Shown: piece after piece, positions 2,178 to 50,522 of the stretch
Layout of the letters: every line of letters begins with the position of its first letter
Position numbering within the stretch: the first letter of the stretch is position 1
Source of the DNA: Candidatus Woesearchaeota archaeon
GTDB lineage: Archaea > Nanobdellota > Nanobdellia > Woesearchaeales > GW2011-AR4
DNA length: 64,000 bases
NCBI GenBank assembly: GCA_016185945.1
Contig: JACPMR010000011.1
Span: forward strand, 633 to 64,632
Reading direction: 5' to 3'
Program-made: the position numbers and the translations under genes
Notes under the pieces: model-generated
What the model saw: only the letters and a program-made list of their open reading frames with translations
Databases searched by the model: none
What the model was told of the DNA's origin: nothing

Positions 2178-2639
2178 TTACAAAGCACCCTTTAAAGTAT
2201 CCTTGATTATGGCAGGGCATATCCTTGTCACTCCATCAATCCCTTTTAATTTGTCAGAAACAGCCCTTAGTTCATCATCATTTTTTGTCCAAACCTCTAG
2301 CATGAACATATGATCTCCTGTTGTGGATGCAGCAAACTTTACTCCGTCAAATTCTGCCAGTTTCTTTGCCACATCAAGGTATTTTTCAGGCGTTACATCA
2401 ACGCCAATCAAAGCCCGGTGTGCAATACCTATTTTATTTGTATCAACAACCAAAGAATACTTCTTGATAATGCCTTCGTCCTCAAGCTTTGACACTCTTT
2501 TCCTTATTGTTGACTCAGAAACTTTTAGCTTTCTAGCTATCTCCATGAACGGTGTTCTGGAGTTTTTGGAAAGTGTTTCTATAATGCCTAAATCTAATTT
2601 ATCCACAAAACCACCCAAAAAATAAAAAAGTTTAATCAA
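2178..2639 (-). CDS. Lrp/AsnC-family transcriptional regulator.
   Basis: N-terminal HTH (LDLGIIETLSKNSRTPFMEIARKLKVSESTIRKRVSKLEDEGII) plus a C-terminal RAM-type ligand-binding domain. Confidence 0.8.
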   Translation of the reverse strand: MIKLFYFLGGFVDKLDLGIIETLSKNSRTPFMEIARKLKVSESTIRKRVSKLEDEGIIKKYSLVVDTNKIGIAHRALIGVDVTPEKYLDVAKKLAEFDGVKFAASTTGDHMFMLEVWTKNDDELRAVSDKLKGIDGVTRICPAIIKDTLKGAL

Positions 2640-3343
2640 GCAGCATGCTTGAACAAAACATATCTCTTGTCTACACTGACATAATCTGATTTTGTCCTCG
2701 CATCAAGCTTGTCAAGCAAAGTGTTTAATGCAATGAATGAAACAGTAATGCCGCCTGCAAACAACAATCTCTCAAAAATCACAACTGGGATTAAAGCAAC
2801 CCATGCTGCTGGTGTCATTGGCACTATGTAATTCCACATTGCACCTCCGACAGAATGCGCTGTAAAAGTTGCTCCCAAGCTTTTTAGGAATGCTCTTTCC
2901 CCGTACTTTTTCGGCAGCAATTTGATAATTATCGGTATTGTCCAGAACAATGTGAAGAACCAGACTTGCCTGCCGACTGGGTGAGCAACAAACAATATAA
3001 TTGCTGCAACTGGAACCAAGAAACTTACCTTGTCATATTTTTTAGTTCCAAAGTACCATGCTGCAAAAAGCATCGGCAATAACCTCAAGGTATTGACTAA
3101 AGTAAATGCTTTACCTAATAACAGATAACTAGACACTTCTGCAATCAAAACCGACAAAACTCCTACAACTGAGCCGAGAAACGCTCCTGCAACCGGGCCG
3201 AAAAACTGAAACAAAGTGAAGAACTGGTTTTCAGCCCCAACAAGCTTTGAGAAATTTATCCTGTCGCCAACAAAAACCAAAACGCTGAAAATAAGCAAAA
3301 ATATCAATCCCTTTGCCGTAATCAGTTTATTTAATTTCATCAT
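2636..3343 (-). CDS. Polytopic membrane protein, possibly a substrate-capture or ECF S-component-like transporter; 4-nt overlap with lrp.
   Basis: About 6 predicted hydrophobic helices. No diagnostic motif. Confidence 0.35.
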   Translation of the reverse strand: MMKLNKLITAKGLIFLLIFSVLVFVGDRINFSKLVGAENQFFTLFQFFGPVAGAFLGSVVGVLSVLIAEVSSYLLLGKAFTLVNTLRLLPMLFAAWYFGTKKYDKVSFLVPVAAIILFVAHPVGRQVWFFTLFWTIPIIIKLLPKKYGERAFLKSLGATFTAHSVGGAMWNYIVPMTPAAWVALIPVVIFERLLFAGGITVSFIALNTLLDKLDARTKSDYVSVDKRYVLFKHAA

Positions 3344-3367: not shown

Positions 3368-4252
3368 TCAGTTTAAATAATTTTCTGTTTTAAAATCTGC
3401 AAGAAGGTTCACTAACTCTTTGGCCAATTCAAGGTTATGAAGCGTTATATACTCTATGTTCAATCCCACTGGTATTTTTACATCAATTCCATCAAGAAAA
3501 CTGAAAATTTTGTTTACTAATTCTATTATCACATTTATGGACTCTTTGCCTGTGTCATCTGCAAACCTTAATCTGCTTTCTGTTTTCTCCGTCATATGAG
3601 CTCCAAGCCATTTAATAAACGCAATGTCCTCAGAATTGGACACAGGCGAAAAGCTCAAATAAAATTTTGCAGGCTTTAAATTAAATTCATTACATTTTCT
3701 TGAGTATTCTTTTAGAACATTTACAATTTTATCTGACTCAAACAAAACCTGGCTGGTGAAAAAATTGCATCCAGAAGCTGTTTTGCTTATTAGCCTGTCA
3801 GCCTCATTATCCCTTTCAGGTATGAAAATGTTGCCAAAATTGATTTTTTTGTTCTTTGCAATTGAATTTGCTTCTATAATGCTTGGCCCAGGGTACTCAA
3901 AAGAATTGATTTTCTGCCCCACAAACACAAAGTTTTTGATTCCAAATTTGCTGATGCTTTCATCAAGCCATTGCTCAAATTTGTCTTTAGAATTGTGGTG
4001 CACAACAACTGTATTAATTATTATCTCTCTGCCGCATCTTTCCCTTAGCTTTAATCCAAACTCCCTAGTATCAATGTTTTTATAATAAGGCCGTCCAAGA
4101 TGATTTTCTTCAACTATTTCAGGAATGTTTAATGTTGTGACATTTTTCATGCCTTCCAAGGCATTCGTTATTTTGTCTATAATCTTTCTCGCATACGCCT
4201 CAGAGGCGCTTTTTGTGCATGGAATAACCTCAAAAACTATGCCTCCTTTCAT
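3368..4252 (-). CDS. Methylenetetrahydrofolate reductase (MetF)-like TIM-barrel protein.
   Basis: Length and the motif CNFFTSQVLFESD resemble MetF QFFFD. Sits next to metE. Confidence 0.4.
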   Translation of the reverse strand: MKGGIVFEVIPCTKSASEAYARKIIDKITNALEGMKNVTTLNIPEIVEENHLGRPYYKNIDTREFGLKLRERCGREIIINTVVVHHNSKDKFEQWLDESISKFGIKNFVFVGQKINSFEYPGPSIIEANSIAKNKKINFGNIFIPERDNEADRLISKTASGCNFFTSQVLFESDKIVNVLKEYSRKCNEFNLKPAKFYLSFSPVSNSEDIAFIKWLGAHMTEKTESRLRFADDTGKESINVIIELVNKIFSFLDGIDVKIPVGLNIEYITLHNLELAKELVNLLADFKTENYLN

Positions 4253-7304: not shown

Positions 7305-7497
7305 CTGTTATATTTATTTTGCAGTATATAAATTTTTTGGAGGATTTAAGCAGATTGTGTTAAATGGGTTCCATCAAGCGGCATAAACCTTTAACATTTA
7401 GGGATGATATACCAGTATTGGTATACACAATACTGAATACCACCAGACAATAAAACCAGCACAACCTTTTTAAACCACTACTTTTTACGATGTGCGG

Positions 7498-9588
7498 GTG
7501 AAAAAATTCAGAACATTAAAAAGACAGAAAATACTAGTAACATCTGCATTGCCGTACGCCAACGGGCCGATCCACGTAGGGCACCTAGTTGAATACATAC
7601 AGACAGACATATTTGTCAGATTTCTAAGATTAATTGAAGAAGATGTTTTGTATGTCTGCGCTGACGACACCCACGGAGCGCCTATTGAAATAAAGGCAGC
7701 AGAGTTAAAAATAACCCCAGAGCAATTAATTGCAGATGTCTATAAGGAGCATGTTCAGGACTTCAAGGATTTCTCAATCAGCTTTGACAATTACTACACA
7801 ACAAACAGCCCGGAAAACAAGCATTACAGCGATTTAATATTCCTGAGATTAAAGAATAAAGGCTACATTTACACAAAAGACATTGAAGTTACTTATTGCG
7901 AAAACTGCAAGAGAACATTGCCGGACAGGTATGTCAAGTGAAAATGCCCAAAGTGCAATGCCCCTAATCAATATGGGGATGTTTGCGAGCAATGCAATGC
8001 AGCTTACAAAACCATTGATTTAATAGAGCCGTATTGTGCAATATGCAAAAACAAGCCAATCAGAAAAACTTCAACCCACTATTTCTTCCAATTAAGCAAA
8101 TTCTCAAAAAAGCTTGAGTCATGGCTGACAAAAAACAAAAACTTGCAGCCGGAAGTAAAAAATTTTGTCCTGAACTGGATAAAAAATGGATTGGAGGACT
8201 GGAACATAAGCAGGGACGGCCCTTACTTTGGCTTCAAGATTCCAGGGGAAGAAAACAAGTACTACTATGTTTGGCTCGATGCCCCAATCGGCTACATTGC
8301 AAGCACCGATAATTATTGCAAGAAGCACGGCTTGAAGACAGAAGATTACTGGAACAGCAAGGATGCGGGAATCTATCATTTCATCGGAAAGGACATTACT
8401 TACTTCCATCTCTTGTTCTGGCCTGCAATGTTGATGGGTGCTGATTTTGAATTGCCTCAAAGCGTTTATGTCCATGGCTTTTTGACAGTCAACGGCGAGA
8501 AGATGAGCAAAAGCCGGGGAACTTTCTTCACCGCAAGGGAATTTCTGCAAAAATACAACCCGGAATATCTTAGGTTTTACTATGCGAGTTTGTTGAGCAG
8601 GAATTTGTCGGATATAGATTTAAGTTTTAATGATTTCAGGAAAAAAATCAATAATGAATTGGCTTCAAACATTGGAAATTTCTGCTACAGGGTTCTGAAT
8701 TTCCTGAACAAGCATTTTGGCGGGCAGGTCAATGGCTTGGACAATAACAAGCAACTAACCAATGAAATCAAAGAAAAAATCAAAAACATTGAAAAAAATT
8801 ATCATGACTTGAATTTCAATGAAGCTGTCAAGGATATATTGCATATTTCTTCGCTCGGCAACAAGTATTTCCAGGAAAGCGAGCCATGGAAATTGATTAA
8901 AGAAGACAGAGAAAAAGTTAATAAAATTCTTGGCTTGTGCGTGAATATTGTCAAAAATTTAAGCATTTTAATACAGCCAATTCTGCCGGATTTTTCGTCA
9001 AAGCTGCAGCAGCAATTAAATCTCAAAAACCTTAACTGGAGCAGCCTTGGTTTTGAACTGAAAAAACATAAAATAGGAAAAGAGGAGATTTTAATCAATA
9101 AAATTGAGGAGGAAGGGCAAAAGCCGATATTCCCGCTTAATTTAAAAGTTGCAAAGATAGTTGAAGTAAGGCAACATCCGAATGCCGACAAGCTCAGCGT
9201 CTTGGATATTGACTTAGGCGCTGAAAAAAGGCAGATAGTTGCTGGATTAGTTGGACACTACTCAAATGAGGAATTGAAGAACAAAAAAATAATTGTAATA
9301 ACCAATTTGAAATATGCAAAGTTAAGGGGGGTTGAAAGCCAGGGAATGCTGCTTGCCGGCGACGACGGAAAGAATGTCGGCTTATTAACTGTTGAGAAAA
9401 GCAATCCCGGCGACAGGGTTTATTTTGAAGGGTACGAAACAGGCAGGGAAGAAACAAGCTTTGACAGCTTTCAGAAGATAAGGATGCATGTGCAGAGTGG
9501 CAAGGCATATTTTGAAGGCAGGGAATTGAAAACAGACAAGGAGATTGTAAAAGTGGAGAAAGCAGCAGACGGAGCAAGAGTCAGATAG
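7498..9588 (+). CDS. metG: Methionyl-tRNA synthetase with a C-terminal EMAP/Trbp111 tRNA-binding domain. The reading frame is interrupted by a single in-frame TGA at 7939..7941 (ORF-track fragments 7492..7941 and 8143..9588 are one frame).
   Basis: HIGH motif PYANGPIHVGH; KMSKS motif; zinc knuckle KCPKC...CEQC colinear with E. coli MetRS; tRNA-binding C-terminus. TGA aligns to the conserved Gly of VKGTCPKC. Confidence 0.85.
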
Positions 9589-10396
9589 CTTTTGATGCCT
9601 TTTCTATTTCTTTTTGAGTATATCCCTCCTTTAAAAGAGTGTCTTTTATTTGCTGCAAGGTAAATCCTTTCCTTATGCTTTCATCAAAATATTGCTTTAA
9701 AGAACTTATTATCTTGTTTTCTTTATTGATTTTCAAAAATAAGAAGATCAATGTGAGAATAACAATGCCGAACATTAAGAATATCCAATTCGGCATGTTT
9801 GGTGGTTGATTTGAAAACCCTGCTCTGTTTTCTGTATTTAATGAACTTATTTCAATCTCCATGACTTTTGAATTTTTTAAATTGTAAATTTCAATCCTGC
9901 CGGCATTATCGCTATGCGGTATATATACTTGATAATTTTTATTTTCCAAAAAGCTATAATAAAATGAATAGATGTCTGAGCCATCAATGGAGACTATCTT
10001 AACTAAATAGCCGGATTTATCAGGATATTCTGCTTTCTCATCGGATTCCATGACTTGGATTTTATTGAATGCGAGAGAGCCGTCATTGTAATTGACATCC
10101 AGCACAAAATATTTTTCAGGATTGCTTACTGCAAAAGCGGTTATTTTTTGTTGTTGATTTTCATCTAAGATTGAGTAAAACGAAAAAATTGAAACAATGA
10201 ATAAAAATGAAATTAAAACAGCATAATTTTTGACAAACTCCAATTCAGCGTGTTTTTTCACTAAAACACCAACATAATCTTCATCGTATCCGTAATCAAC
10301 CAAAACTTTTCTTACAGCATGCTTGGAGTAACCTTTACTTAAATGCTCCTTTATGTACATTTTCAGTTTTTTGTCTATCCTATTTTTGTCCAGCAT
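9581..10396 (-). CDS. Hypothetical membrane protein with a duplicated short alpha-helical GY-containing domain at both termini.
   Basis: N-terminal LSKGYSKHAVRKVLVDYGY and C-terminal IRKGFTLQQIKDTLLKEGYT repeats; 2 TM segments. Confidence 0.35.
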   Translation of the reverse strand: MLDKNRIDKKLKMYIKEHLSKGYSKHAVRKVLVDYGYDEDYVGVLVKKHAELEFVKNYAVLISFLFIVSIFSFYSILDENQQQKITAFAVSNPEKYFVLDVNYNDGSLAFNKIQVMESDEKAEYPDKSGYLVKIVSIDGSDIYSFYYSFLENKNYQVYIPHSDNAGRIEIYNLKNSKVMEIEISSLNTENRAGFSNQPPNMPNWIFLMFGIVILTLIFLFLKINKENKIISSLKQYFDESIRKGFTLQQIKDTLLKEGYTQKEIEKASKAI

Positions 10397-10543
10397 TTTT
10401 TAACAAAGAGACTAGGTTTTTTGACTTGCCGATGTATTTGACTACTTTCTGCTTTACCTTTCCATCCACTCTTGTGCTTTTTACAAGGTAATAATAGTAA
10501 TTGTTGTTGATTTTCTTGACTCTGAGGAATACCATAGATGATT

Positions 10544-24763: not shown

Positions 24764-26266
24764 CTAACCCTTCACATTCCCCACGGGCTTCAATCCAACA
24801 ACAGGCATAGAAATTCCCGCCTCTGCAACCGCATTTATTACATCATTAATATTTTTGTATGCAAAACCAGCTTCTTCAGCCAACCCCGACATTGAGATTG
24901 CTTTCACGTAAATCCCTCTTTTCTCCATGTCTCTCTGCAACTGCTCGCCTCTGACTTGCCTTTTTGCAGCAGCCCTTGACATTGTACGTCCGCTCCCATG
25001 TGCCGTACTCCCGAAAGTCTCGTCCATTGCCTTTTGGGTTCCGACAAGCAAGAAACTTCCAGTTTCCATTGAGCCTCCTATTATTACAGGCTGCCCTGTT
25101 TCCTTGTAAAGTTTTGCAAGTTCAGGATGATGCGGGGGAAATGCCCGTGTGCTTCCTTTTCTGTGCACAACAACCTTTTTTTTGTGCCCGTCAATAACAT
25201 GCTCTTCAAGCTTTGCAATGTTATGCGCGACATCATAAACCATGTGCATCTCCAATTTTTCTGCTTCTGTCTTGAAAACTTTTGAGAATCCTTCCCTTAT
25301 CCTGTGCAAAATAACTTGCCTGTTAGCAAATGCCATATTGGCTGCGCACGCCATTGCCTTGTAATAATCCTGCCCTTCATTGCTCTGGAATGGAGCGCAT
25401 GCAAGCTCCCTGTCATAAACTTCAATGCCGTATTTTTTCATTGTTCCTTCAAAAATTCTTAAGTAGTCAGTCCCAATCTGATGCCCGAATCCTCTGGAGC
25501 CGCAATGCACCATAATAACAACCTGCTCTGGCTGGGTAATTCCAAATTTTTTTGCAAGTTCTTCGTCAAAAATGTTTTCTGCCTTTACAATCTGTATCTC
25601 AAGATAATGGTTGCCAGAGCCCAAAGTTCCTAATTGTTTAATCCCTCTTTCCATTGCCTTTGAGCTTACTTTCTCCGGCTCAGCCCAGTCAATCCTGCCA
25701 TAGCCTTCAGTTCTTTCCAAATCCTCTGTCCAGCCATAGCTGTTTTCAATACACCATTTTGAGCCATATGTCATTATTTCCTTGAATTGCGATCTGCTTG
25801 CATCCACAAATCCTCTTGAGCCGACACCGGCAGGAACTGTCCTGAACAAAGTGTCAACTAATTCCCTTAATTTTGGCTGTACTTCTTTGTAGGTTAGATT
25901 TGTTGTAACAAGGCGCATGCCGCAGTTGATATCAAACCCGACTAAGGTTTAAATTCCTCCGGGTGATATCACGCCAGTCTCAGCGTCAAAAGCTGCAACG
26001 CCGCCAATGGGAAAACCGTCAAGGGCTGAATAAGAGTTTTTACTTACTCAGAATCCCCAGTGCCCATCTGGCATGCAGAATGCATATTTCTGGATTCCTG
26101 GCAAACAAGCTACATTTGTTACCTGATTAAATACACCTTCATCCATTTCCCTAAGAAGTTTTTCGGTTGCATAAATACGTGCAGGAACAAGCATACCTTT
26201 CTTATAGCTCATAGGTATTTCCCACACAGTTTTATCTACCCGCTTCATAGGTGGAAGCTCTGCCAT
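24764..26266 (-). CDS. rtcB: RNA-splicing ligase RtcB. Frame interrupted by two small in-frame insertions, each introducing a stop codon (TGA at 26048..26050, TAA at 25949..25951). ORF-track fragments 26048..26266 and 24764..25918 are one frame.
   Basis: MPDGHWGF[*VSKNSYSALD]GFPIGGVAAFDAETGVISPGGI[*TLV]GFDINCGMRL... is colinear with the archaeal RtcB consensus once the bracketed 33-nt and 12-nt segments are removed. Confidence 0.85.
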
Positions 26267-40508: not shown

Positions 40509-42743
40509 ATGAAAAGAACCCAGACTTGCGGAGAATTGACAGATAAAGACGTTAACAAAAAAGTAACTTTATGCGGATGGTGCTCGACAAGAAGAGACCA
40601 TGGCGGGGTTATTTTTATCGACTTGAGAGACAGGTATGGAATAACGCAAGTAGTTTTTGATCCTTCTTTTAATCTTGAAGCGCATAAAATTGCTGAAAAA
40701 TTAGGCAGGGAAGATGTGATTCAAGTAAAAGGCATTGTAAAGCACAGAAAAAAGGGCATGGAAAATCCAAAGCTTAAAACAGGCGCTGTTGAAGTTTTTG
40801 TTGAGAAAATAGAAATTTTGAGCGAGTCAGAAGCCCCTCCAATGGAAATTGATGACAGGATTCTTACAAGCGAAGACACGCGCTTGAAGTACAGATATCT
40901 TGACTTGAGAAAGCCGGGAATGCAGCACAACATAATAACAAGGCACAAATTTGTCAAAGCTGTCAGGGATTATTTTGACAGCCTGGATTTTGTTGAAATT
41001 GAAACTCCTATTCTTGCAAAAAGCACTCCTGAAGGCGCTAGAGATTATCTTGTGCCGTCTAGAATTCATGCTGGAAAGTTTTATGCTCTGCCCCAAAGCC
41101 CTCAGATATTCAAGCAGCTTTTGATGGTCTCTGGCTTTGACAGGTACTTTCAGATTGCAAGATGCTTCAGAGATGAGGATTTAAGGGCTGACAGGCAGCC
41201 GGAATTCACTCAGATAGATGTAGAAATGAGCTTCGTTGAGGAAGATGATATAATGGAAATTGTTGAAGGCATGCTCAAGCACGTCTGGAGAATTTTGTTG
41301 AACAAAGACTTAAAAACGCCATTTCCAAAAATAACCTACAATGAGGCAATCAGCAAATATGGCTTGGACAAGCCCGATACAAGGTTTGAGCTTCATCTTG
41401 TTGATGTAACCGATGTTGTCAAAAACTCGAATTTTGAGGTTTTTACAAAGGCAATAAAGCAAAAAGGAATTGTAAAGTGCATAAATGCAAAGGGCTGCGC
41501 AAGCTTCAGCAGGACTGTTATAGAGGAATTGACAAGCTTTGTTGCAATTTATGGTTCAAAAGGGCTTGCATGGATGAAAGTTACAGAAAAAGGGCTTGAA
41601 AGCTCTATTGTGAAATTCTTTGACGAGAAAATACAAAAGGAATTGCTCAAGGCAGCAAATGCTAAGAAAGATGACTTGTTATTTTTTGTTGCTGACTCAA
41701 GCCATAAAGTTGTAAACGATTCACTTGGTTATTTAAGAATTGAGATTGCCAAAAGATTGAATCTTATTGACAATAATCACTTTAGTTTTGTGTGGGTTAC
41801 TGACTTTCCATTGGTTGATTGGAGCGAAGAAGAGCAGAAATATGTTGCAGTTCATCATCCTTTCACAAGCCCAAAAGACGAAGATATAGGGCTGCTTGAT
41901 AAATCTCCGGAAAAGGCAAGGGCAAAGGCATATGATATTGTTTTGAACGGCACTGAAATCGGAGGCGGCTCTATAAGAATCCATAGAAGCAATATCCAGT
42001 CAAAGATGTTTTCTGTCTTGGGTTTAAGCAAGGAAGAGGCAGAGCAGAAATTTGGATTCTTGCTCGAGGCATTCAAGTATGGCACTCCGCCTCATGGAGG
42101 CATTGCCTTGGGAGTTGACAGGATTGTTGCTATGATAACTGGAAATGAATCAATAAGAGAAGTAATTGCCTTTCCAAAGAACAAGGCAGCAGAGTCATTA
42201 ATGGATGAGGCGCCAAGTGCAGTAAGCGAGAAGCAATTAGAGGAATTACATATCAAGTTTGATTTTGTAAAAGAGCAAGTAAATGTTGTGTTCGGCAAGA
42301 TAAGGGATGTCTTGAACAAGGAAAAGATTGAGCATGAAGTGCTTGAGCACAAGCCAGTTTATACGAGTAAAGAAGCAGCTCAAGTAAGAGGCACAGAGCT
42401 GAAGCAGGGCTGCAAGGCACTAATTTGCAAGACAGAAGAGGGATTTATCCAAGCAGTTGTCTCTGGTGCAAAGGAGCTTGACATTGGAAAATTGCAGAAA
42501 CTGACTTTGTACAAGAAAATCGAGCTGGCAAATGCAAAGGAAGTAAGGCAGGCAACTGGATGCAACATTGGCTCTGTGCCGCCGTTTGGAAATTTGTTTA
42601 ATTTAAAAACTTACTTTGATAAGTCAGTTGTTGAGAATGATATAATTGCATTTAATGCAGGCACGCATACAAGAAGCATCAAGATGAAAGCGAAGGATTT
42701 GATTAAGGTTGTTAATCCTGTGGTTGGGGAGTTTGGTAAGTGA
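40509..42743 (+). CDS. aspS: Bacterial-type aspartyl-tRNA synthetase (with GAD insertion) fused to a C-terminal YbaK/ProX-type aminoacyl-tRNA deacylase domain.
   Basis: Class II motifs and the anticodon-binding OB fold (residues about 1-590). The C-terminal 150 aa align to YbaK. Confidence 0.85.
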   Translation: MKRTQTCGELTDKDVNKKVTLCGWCSTRRDHGGVIFIDLRDRYGITQVVFDPSFNLEAHKIAEKLGREDVIQVKGIVKHRKKGMENPKLKTGAVEVFVEKIEILSESEAPPMEIDDRILTSEDTRLKYRYLDLRKPGMQHNIITRHKFVKAVRDYFDSLDFVEIETPILAKSTPEGARDYLVPSRIHAGKFYALPQSPQIFKQLLMVSGFDRYFQIARCFRDEDLRADRQPEFTQIDVEMSFVEEDDIMEIVEGMLKHVWRILLNKDLKTPFPKITYNEAISKYGLDKPDTRFELHLVDVTDVVKNSNFEVFTKAIKQKGIVKCINAKGCASFSRTVIEELTSFVAIYGSKGLAWMKVTEKGLESSIVKFFDEKIQKELLKAANAKKDDLLFFVADSSHKVVNDSLGYLRIEIAKRLNLIDNNHFSFVWVTDFPLVDWSEEEQKYVAVHHPFTSPKDEDIGLLDKSPEKARAKAYDIVLNGTEIGGGSIRIHRSNIQSKMFSVLGLSKEEAEQKFGFLLEAFKYGTPPHGGIALGVDRIVAMITGNESIREVIAFPKNKAAESLMDEAPSAVSEKQLEELHIKFDFVKEQVNVVFGKIRDVLNKEKIEHEVLEHKPVYTSKEAAQVRGTELKQGCKALICKTEEGFIQAVVSGAKELDIGKLQKLTLYKKIELANAKEVRQATGCNIGSVPPFGNLFNLKTYFDKSVVENDIIAFNAGTHTRSIKMKAKDLIKVVNPVVGEFGK

Positions 42744-49973: not shown

Positions 49974-50522
49974 ATGCACAAGCAATTAAGGCTTTTTTTA
50001 ACGGCAAATTCCTTTTTTGCGCTGGCGGCAGGAATGCTTGGGCCTATATATGCATTATTTGTCAAGCAGATTGGAGGGGATGTGCTGGCAGCTAGCGGTG
50101 CATGGGCAACTTTTATGATTGTTTCAGGACTTGGCATATTTTTAATGGGCAAAATCCAGGATAAAATAAAAAGAGAAAAGCCAGTTATAATAATTGGGTA
50201 TTTCCTGCAGAGCTTGGGTTTTCTTGGATATTTTTTTGTTTCCAATATTGTTCAGTTATTTATAGTGCAGGTGATATTGGGGGTTAGCTTAATGATTCAG
50301 ATTCCGGTTTTTAATTCATTTTATACAAAGTATCTTGAAAAGGGAAAATATGCTTCCCAGTGGGCTGCTTGGGAAGGGTTGTATTTCACGATTACGGGCA
50401 TCGCGGCGCTTATTGGGGGGTTTGTAGTGAAATTTTTTGATTTCAAGTTTTTATTTTTGATGATGTTTGGCTTGTCTTTAATTGGATTGGCATTGTCTAC
50501 TCAGTTAAAAGAGGAAAAATGA
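49974..50522 (+). CDS. Six-TM membrane protein resembling half of an MFS transporter, translationally coupled between gatC and gatA.
   Basis: Starts 2 nt after the gatC stop and overlaps the gatA start (ATGA). Confidence 0.45.
   Translation: MHKQLRLFLTANSFFALAAGMLGPIYALFVKQIGGDVLAASGAWATFMIVSGLGIFLMGKIQDKIKREKPVIIIGYFLQSLGFLGYFFVSNIVQLFIVQVILGVSLMIQIPVFNSFYTKYLEKGKYASQWAAWEGLYFTITGIAALIGGFVVKFFDFKFLFLMMFGLSLIGLALSTQLKEEK

Follow-up and report, generated by a model that had tools for sequence, protein, structure and literature searches.

An in-frame TGA at an invariant glycine codon of metG in a Woesearchaeote, tentatively a recent nonsense allele, and probable mini-introns in rtcB of the same contig

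In-frame stop codons in otherwise intact genes are met in ordinary nonsense alleles, in organisms with a changed genetic code, in selenoprotein genes, in methanogens that use pyrrolysine, and in prfB. The case compared with them here is metG, the gene of methionyl-tRNA synthetase (MetRS), which carries a TGA at positions 7939..7941 of a 64,000-nucleotide stretch (the window) of contig JACPMR010000011.1 from a groundwater Candidatus Woesearchaeota archaeon. This host uses the standard code, and its metG is otherwise intact and strongly constrained. We tentatively regard the TGA as a real, recent nonsense allele at a mutation-prone spot and not as a programmed recoding signal. Ordinary nonsense alleles and split gene calls in metagenome-assembled genomes (MAGs) resemble it in showing one base change, an intact gene and a truncated public annotation (here MBI2654091.1, 481 aa). 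They differ in that the identical change is found here at the identical codon in the contig of a second species, and in that metG is essential and presumably single-copy.

In code 25 (SR1/Absconditabacteria and Gracilibacteria), UGA is read as Gly, and the metG UGA likewise stands at a Gly of every relative and comes from GGA. In contrast to code 25, TGA is a regular terminator in the window, metG has the only in-frame TGA outside a putative intron of rtcB, and no tRNA-Gly(UCA) was seen. Selenoprotein genes, in which UGA is read as selenocysteine (Sec) with the help of a Sec insertion sequence (SECIS), are similar in that the metG UGA lies within a conserved metal-binding motif. They are unlike metG in that its homologous residue is Gly and not Cys, and in that neither a SECIS, a 3′ untranslated region (3′UTR) nor Sec machinery was found in the window; Sec is not known in DPANN archaea. 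The amber codon of methanogens is read ambiguously as pyrrolysine or as stop (PMC12626013). Were the metG UGA translated, the cell would resemble these methanogens in using one stop codon both for termination and for an amino acid; the methanogen system differs in using UAG with a dedicated tRNA and synthetase, and nothing comparable was found for metG. The translation gene prfB also carries an in-frame UGA, which is autoregulatory, but this site needs a +1 frameshift and the slippery CUU-UGA, whereas the downstream frame of metG is unchanged and has no shift site.

The metG frame (7498..9588, plus strand) comprises 696 codons with one stop, at codon 148 of the translation. It starts with GTG at 7498 (an alternative GTG lies at 7492) and terminates with TAG at 9586-9588, and its 3′ end is overlapped by a convergent gene (9581-10396). 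The in-frame TGA (7939..7941, plus strand; gtc aag TGA aaa tgc at 7933-7947) takes the place of an invariant Gly codon, GGA in relatives, two residues ahead of the CPKC zinc knuckle. The upstream part (7498..7938, plus strand, 147 codons) encodes the first half of the Rossmann fold and the first CxxC pair, and is the sole product if UGA terminates. The downstream part (7942..9585, plus strand, 548 codons) continues in the unchanged frame with no further stop. Its earliest in-frame ATG, GTG or TTG is the TTG at 8143, 68 codons past the TGA, from which an open reading frame (ORF) of 481 aa extends (8143..9588, plus strand). The product of this ORF is identical to NCBI MBI2654091.1 (P0121), annotated 'methionine--tRNA ligase' and encoded on a contig of 71,934 bp; the TGA is therefore present in the deposited MAG, and the NCBI annotation of this metG covers just the C-terminal 481 aa.

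When Gly is put at codon 148, Pfam finds tRNA-synt_1g over positions 1-391 of 391, Anticodon_3, and a C-terminal tRNA_bind domain. The segment lpdryvkGkcpkc aligns without gaps to the sequences of the Escherichia coli MetRS structures (1QQT, 1PFU and others), where the TGA falls on Gly143, two residues before Cys145, the first zinc ligand. Two statements of an earlier note made from the letters of the window (the sequence-only reading) were borne out here: translation of 7498-9588 confirmed that metG is one continuous frame save for TGA 7939..7941, and the structure alignment confirmed that this frame matches E. coli residue for residue, with the stop at a Gly and no indel. Excision of the TGA as part of an intron, considered by analogy with rtcB, was rejected because the alignment is without an indel.

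The best MetRS homologues carry the name Candidatus Woesearchaeota. The 120 closest share 64-92% identity with the window protein, are nearly all about 690 aa long and intact, and have Gly at the TGA position in 120 of 120 cases. The nearest relative (L001; intact protein P0001) shows 92% aa and 89.5% nt identity and reads gtc aag GGA aaa tgc. From this GGA and the Gly of all homologues it follows that the TGA of the window is derived from GGA by a single G-to-T change, so the point change proposed by the sequence-only reading is seen in a near-identical context. Among 238 alignment columns conserved at >=97%, the window MetRS deviates at one, the stop itself; the family median is also one. 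By the Nei-Gojobori method, the ratio of nonsynonymous to synonymous divergence (dN/dS) against L001 comes to 0.044 for the part before the stop and 0.068 for the part after it, with a synonymous divergence (dS) of about 0.55. These values imply that a few percent of the divergence at most accrued with the downstream part untranslated. Hence either the stop arose very recently, or translation still covers the downstream part: purifying selection keeps the frame downstream of the stop, and a very recent mutation would look alike. A decaying pseudogene was rejected on the same grounds (one deviation in 238 conserved columns, dN/dS of 0.04-0.07).

A second species shows the same change. With the 147-aa N-terminal piece as query, one further protein (P0128) was found that ends exactly at ...LPDRYVK, the sole other such fragment. 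The protein is encoded on L006 (ENA ERZ1292641, Hain_H51_02um, Hainich H51), a contig of 1,833 bp with a k-mer coverage of 4. The sequence there is cca gat aga tat gtc aaa TGA aaa tgc cca aaa tgc, with the changed base at position 728, and the frame then stays open to the contig end. L006 shares 79% nucleotide identity with the window, and by its sequence it is an independent contig of a different species. The nearest relatives of the L006 protein (P0011 and P0021, 94-95% aa identity) are intact, and the contig of P0011 (L088, 93% nt identity to L006) reads gtc aaa GGA aaa tgt. As the nearest relatives of both the window and L006 have GGA, the GGA-to-TGA change came about, or at least entered the record, on two independent occasions at one and the same base; the immediate contexts differ (AAGgGA in the window, AAAgGA in L006). 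The recurrence makes a random sequencing error less likely. The base-call error among the options of the sequence-only reading is thus still live, but less likely than was assumed there.

A degenerate pattern, PDRYV[KR]-TGA-[KR]CP[KR]C, gave 0 matches in 185,579 GTDB species-representative genomes and the JGI metagenome contigs, collections to which neither TGA-bearing contig belongs. A strain-specific pattern with N at the site had no match in JGI, and a search with the C-terminal part gave no further pieces starting just past the site, except the second ORF of the related locus L007. The TGA at this codon is a sporadic occurrence with two known cases and not a clade character.

If the TGA is a recent nonsense allele, an ancestral GGA (Gly) would have become TGA by one G-to-T substitution, and the metagenome assembly would have taken the nonsense allele as consensus from a micro-diverse, probably low-coverage population. 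Such an allele would persist only transiently, presumably by virtue of wild-type copies (strain mixture or polyploidy) or of background UGA leakiness. Its recurrence in L006 could reflect a mutation-prone spot: in the repeats AAR/GGA AAA/TGC CCA AAR/TGC, a primer with ...AAR at its end might pair out of register with an AAR further downstream, take up the T from TGC and then return to its proper place, which would give exactly GGA>TGA. Logan contigs are in keeping with a mixed population. Retrieved via the downstream neighbor gene of metG, those from SRR12113420, SRR12113424, SRR12113384 and SRR12113431 match the window at 100% identity over 8683-10521, and none extends beyond 8683 towards the TGA. 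This coordinate is the end of two of the four, and other boundaries lie at 10505/10521; the shared ends at 8683 suggest strain-level branch points inside metG.

Several observations speak against the nonsense allele. A nonsense allele at consensus frequency is unexpected in a single-copy essential gene, yet it is met in two species; by a rough estimate, the chance of the same substitution by coincidence is a few percent at most. Exact look-ups of the N-terminal fragment (both GTG starts, with V or M) and of the upstream helix-turn-helix (HTH) gene (both starts) found nothing on record. Lastly, an excess of back-up stops after the TGA stops of the window, described below, could mean a leaky UGA, although it was not replicated in related loci.

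Also in line with the nonsense allele, local frameshifting lesions in conserved genes occur among the MAGs of the NC_groundwater set, which includes the closest named relatives. In L007 (4330-4410, JACPMT010000001.1, NC_groundwater_556), 56 nt (about KDIEVTYCEHCKRTLPDRYV) are missing from metG, a CxxC pair with them, and the gene is called as overlapping ORFs of 135 and 552 aa. The second of these starts ATG AAA GGA AAA TGC (MKGKCPKC), exactly where VKG lies; a lesion or a local misassembly would explain this metG. In L032 (about 4100-4150, JACPMV010000022.1, NC_groundwater_558), a MAG from the same study, the gene of a ZIP transporter is short of about 80 nt, the HEIPQE motif among them, and its frame changes. 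This gene was the one candidate from a generic screen of the related loci for in-frame stops that orthologues read across, and it was rejected as a frameshifting deletion; otherwise the screen mostly returned conserved antisense and off-frame ORFs.

The unrelated metagenomic MetRS fragments P0139, P0145, P0204, P0210 and P0215 lose homology at or next to the VKG codons, by small deletions or frameshifts in the A-rich AAA GGN AAA stretch. A clustering of break points at VKG was examined as a candidate signal and dropped: the breaks span the whole knuckle region, and many of the tails are adapter or indel artefacts.

That TGA is a genuine terminator elsewhere in the window, as the sequence-only reading held, is well supported. 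The stops of 69 non-overlapping window ORFs comprise 36 TAA, 24 TGA (including that of the metG N-terminal piece) and 9 TAG. TGA stops coincide with the ends of Pfam domains (GCV_T_C 80/80, Meth_synt_2 323/324, LemA 149/149, CorA 291/292, amidase 444/445, and the tRNA_edit domain of aspartyl-tRNA synthetase (AspRS) 122/123). They are also found at ATGA/GTGA gene overlaps; the TGA of gcvT lies five residues past the end of GCV_T_C and overlaps the gcvH start. The real stops of gatA and two other genes read AAA-TGA-AAA or GGA-TGA-AAA, and that of gatA (AAA-TGA-AAA) resembles the AAG-TGA-AAA of metG. A scan for same-frame ORF pairs one stop apart found no other gene split by TGA among about 68 window genes, and window ORFs of 735-793 aa are free of in-frame TGA. 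The check for more in-frame TGAs called for by the sequence-only reading was run within the window and gave none besides metG, apart from the TGA of the rtcB intron (26048-26050); metG is accordingly the sole window gene with an in-frame TGA between coding sequence. Together with the TGA terminators, this agrees with the earlier view that a global UGA reassignment is unlikely.

The minus-strand ORFs 3368-4252 and 2636-3343 lie in the same frame, with TGA plus 24 nt between them. They encode an MTHFR_2-like protein (294 aa) and then a 235-aa protein without a family match, and look like two genes, the product of 3368-4252 already spanning its family profile.

Decoding factors for UGA were looked for as well, and the check for a suppressor tRNA or Sec machinery gave none. 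The window and 57 related loci (about 0.3 Mb) contain no tRNA genes of any kind, hence no UCA anticodon there. The window has no match to Rfam families including SECIS, and the roughly 60 annotated window ORFs include no Sec genes (SelB, PSTK, SepSecS, SPS, tRNA-Sec). Since the convergent gene 9581-10396 lies over the metG 3′ end, there is no room for an archaeal 3′UTR SECIS. RNA structure around the metG stop is nothing unusual (fold z = -0.44).

Error, recent nonsense mutation and read-through, the three options of the sequence-only reading, are all still live. A sequencing, assembly or consensus artefact would mean that the organisms have GGA and that the T at 7939 and in L006 is absent from cellular DNA. 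The low k-mer coverage of L006 (only 4) and the local lesions of the NC_groundwater MAGs (the 56-nt deletion in L007 metG and the ~80-nt deletion in L032 ZIP) would fit such an artefact, G>T is a typical library-damage error class, and no independent assembly of the site was retrieved. On the other hand, assemblers require several concordant reads, the immediate contexts of the two cases differ, and the same base in the data sets of two laboratories and in two species would be very improbable as an error; an artefact is considered unlikely. The main rival of the nonsense allele, though doubtful too, is tolerated or functional read-through. Here a real stop would be fixed in these strains, and UGA would be decoded at a useful rate to yield full-length MetRS. 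The decoding tRNA could be a near-cognate one for Trp, Cys or Arg, or a suppressor with a UCA anticodon that restores Gly, and the site would recur because only some positions tolerate it. Read-through would account for a GGA>TGA consensus in two species, each with a nearest relative having GGA, and for a downstream frame that is intact and under purifying selection. It also gains from in-frame back-up TAA/TAG codons after the TGA stops of the window, which may serve as back-up stops for a leaky UGA. With a threshold of 15 codons that was set once the data were known, 21 of 23 TGA stops have their next in-frame TAA/TAG 3-15 codons on, versus 18 of 45 TAA/TAG stops (Fisher p = 6e-5). In the other two frames after the same TGA stops the share is 39-65% (Wilcoxon p = 0.009 against these control frames). 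However, this signal is post hoc, and the effect is absent in 37 related loci. Genuine window terminators have the same 6-nt context as the metG TGA, no structure lies downstream of the stop, no other in-frame TGA occurs in about 68 genes, and no suppressor tRNA was seen in the ~0.3 Mb examined. With near-cognate decoding, the Gly shared by 120/120 homologues and E. coli would give way to Trp, Cys or Arg. Programmed read-through is further opposed by the fact that the stop is not conserved across related species. A more far-reaching reading, in which at least two Woesearchaeota species translate the UGA of this codon and DPANN archaea with an apparently standard code thus decode UGA ambiguously as stop and amino acid, seems quite improbable. 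Its most attractive form would be Gly inserted by a tRNA with a UCA anticodon, an early code-25-like reassignment independent in Archaea. Recoding of UGA in Woesearchaeota or DPANN did not turn up in a literature search.

Sec insertion, split enzyme and global recoding together retain very little probability. For Sec insertion or a genome-wide reassignment of UGA (to Gly as in code 25 or Trp as in code 4) speak the in-frame UGA in an intact ORF beside a Cys-rich metal site, and the replacement of GGA by UGA in code 25. Against them, the stop stands opposite Gly and not Cys, in 120/120 homologues and the E. coli structures, unlike what is expected of a selenoprotein; no SECIS or other Rfam match, 3′UTR or Sec gene was seen in the window; and about one-third of genes end in TGA at their natural ends, with the 735-793-aa ORFs free of it. 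Global recoding and Sec are rejected, as far as one 64-kb window allows, and their probability at the metG TGA is close to nil. In a naturally split MetRS, the 147-aa N-terminal piece and a separately initiated C-terminal piece would assemble non-covalently, as the artificially split E. coli MetRS reportedly does (Burbaum and Schimmel 1991). The break does lie within the connective-peptide and zinc-knuckle insertion, and L007 has two overlapping ORFs, the second starting MKGKCPKC. But the earliest in-frame start of the window, TTG 8143, is 68 codons on and would delete three of four Cys pairs, and L007 without its 56 nt including a CxxC pair looks like a lesion; a split enzyme is therefore highly improbable.

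The sequence-only reading had joined the metG stop with two stops in rtcB (24764-26248, minus strand) as one pattern, with three premature stops spread over two essential genes. Both stops in the rtcB frame do exist, but each lies inside a small insertion that had been missed. The gene reads HWG(F-stop-VSKNSYSALD)GFPIGG and SPGGI(stop-TLV)GFDINCG, with the insertions in parentheses, whereas intronless relatives have just TAY GGN and ATH GGN TTY at these two sites. Removal of both insertions gives HWGYGFPIGG and SPGGIGFDINCG, a canonical RtcB: the Pfam RtcB match is then 1-426/426 (577.7 bits), compared with 52-426 (478.7 bits) for the largest ORF before removal.

Both insertions fold into recognizable elements. 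The 33-nt insertion (26020-26052, minus strand), which holds the TGA 26048-26050, has a predicted bulge-helix-bulge fold (z = -2.97): ACUG/CGGU pair as the outer helix, GGG(G)/CCC(U) form a helix of 3-4 bp between the bulges AUU and (U)UGA, and the hairpin has 9 bp. Each of the two bulges would hold one cut. The 12-nt insertion (25942-25953, minus strand) gives a bulge-helix-loop fold, with a helix GAGG/CCUU closed by an 8-nt loop and a 3-nt bulge AGU (z = -2.31). Both motifs are used here as defined in PMC5829648 and PMC6379350.

In a survey of 80 related genomes (Woesearchaeota, Nanoarchaeota), the first rtcB element was found in the window and seven relatives (L009, L013, L024, L028, L031, L032 and L075; about 1690-1730), with a length of 30, 31 or 33 nt. 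Seven genomes (L012, L016, L017, L020, L026, L027 and L037) have another element instead, likewise of 33 nt, which lies 7 nt further upstream and separates the His codon from the Trp codon. The 12-nt element also occurs in L012, and L037 has a further 32-nt element between DI and NCG (about 1800-1840). Altogether, the elements occupy four positions inside conserved RtcB motifs, with lengths of 12, 30, 31, 32 and 33 nt. Their presence is patchy, as the close relatives L008 and L010 are intronless in rtcB. Across these genomes, pairing in the helices is preserved in 99.3% and 95.8% of cells, versus 35-59% with partners slid, and there are one and two compensatory pairs, respectively. Elements of 31 and 32 nt shift the frame and must therefore be removed from the RNA. 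As judged from sequence and predicted folds, the rtcB stops probably lie in bulge-helix-bulge pre-mRNA mini-introns and are not lesions. The supposed common pattern of three stops would then dissolve, the rtcB stops being intronic and shared with relatives, and the metG TGA would stand alone in the window. Pre-mRNA introns of this kind are known for crenarchaeal cbf5 (PMC2738675); in contrast to cbf5, the putative introns here are in the gene of the ligase that would rejoin the exons (RtcB). A literature search found no report of such introns in rtcB.

The significance of the metG TGA depends on its nature. A nonsense variant or a consensus problem would affect annotation: metG is recorded as a 481-aa fragment, which touches completeness and marker-gene statistics. 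A translated stop would be a first sign that DPANN archaea decode UGA ambiguously. The rtcB mini-introns are the more solid by-product; they would lie in the mRNA of the very ligase that would rejoin their exons.

The gene content of the window is archaeal-like (archease, RtcB, a DUF7343 HTH protein, the glycine-cleavage system and GatCAB). The ORF 40509-42743 (plus strand, 744 aa), about 7 kb upstream of gatCAB, encodes a bacterial-type AspRS with a GAD domain and a C-terminal YbaK-like tRNA_edit domain. Between gatC and gatA lies a 182-aa ORF (49974-50522, plus strand) that matches the first half only of a major facilitator superfamily (MFS) transporter profile, and its TGA overlaps the gatA start.

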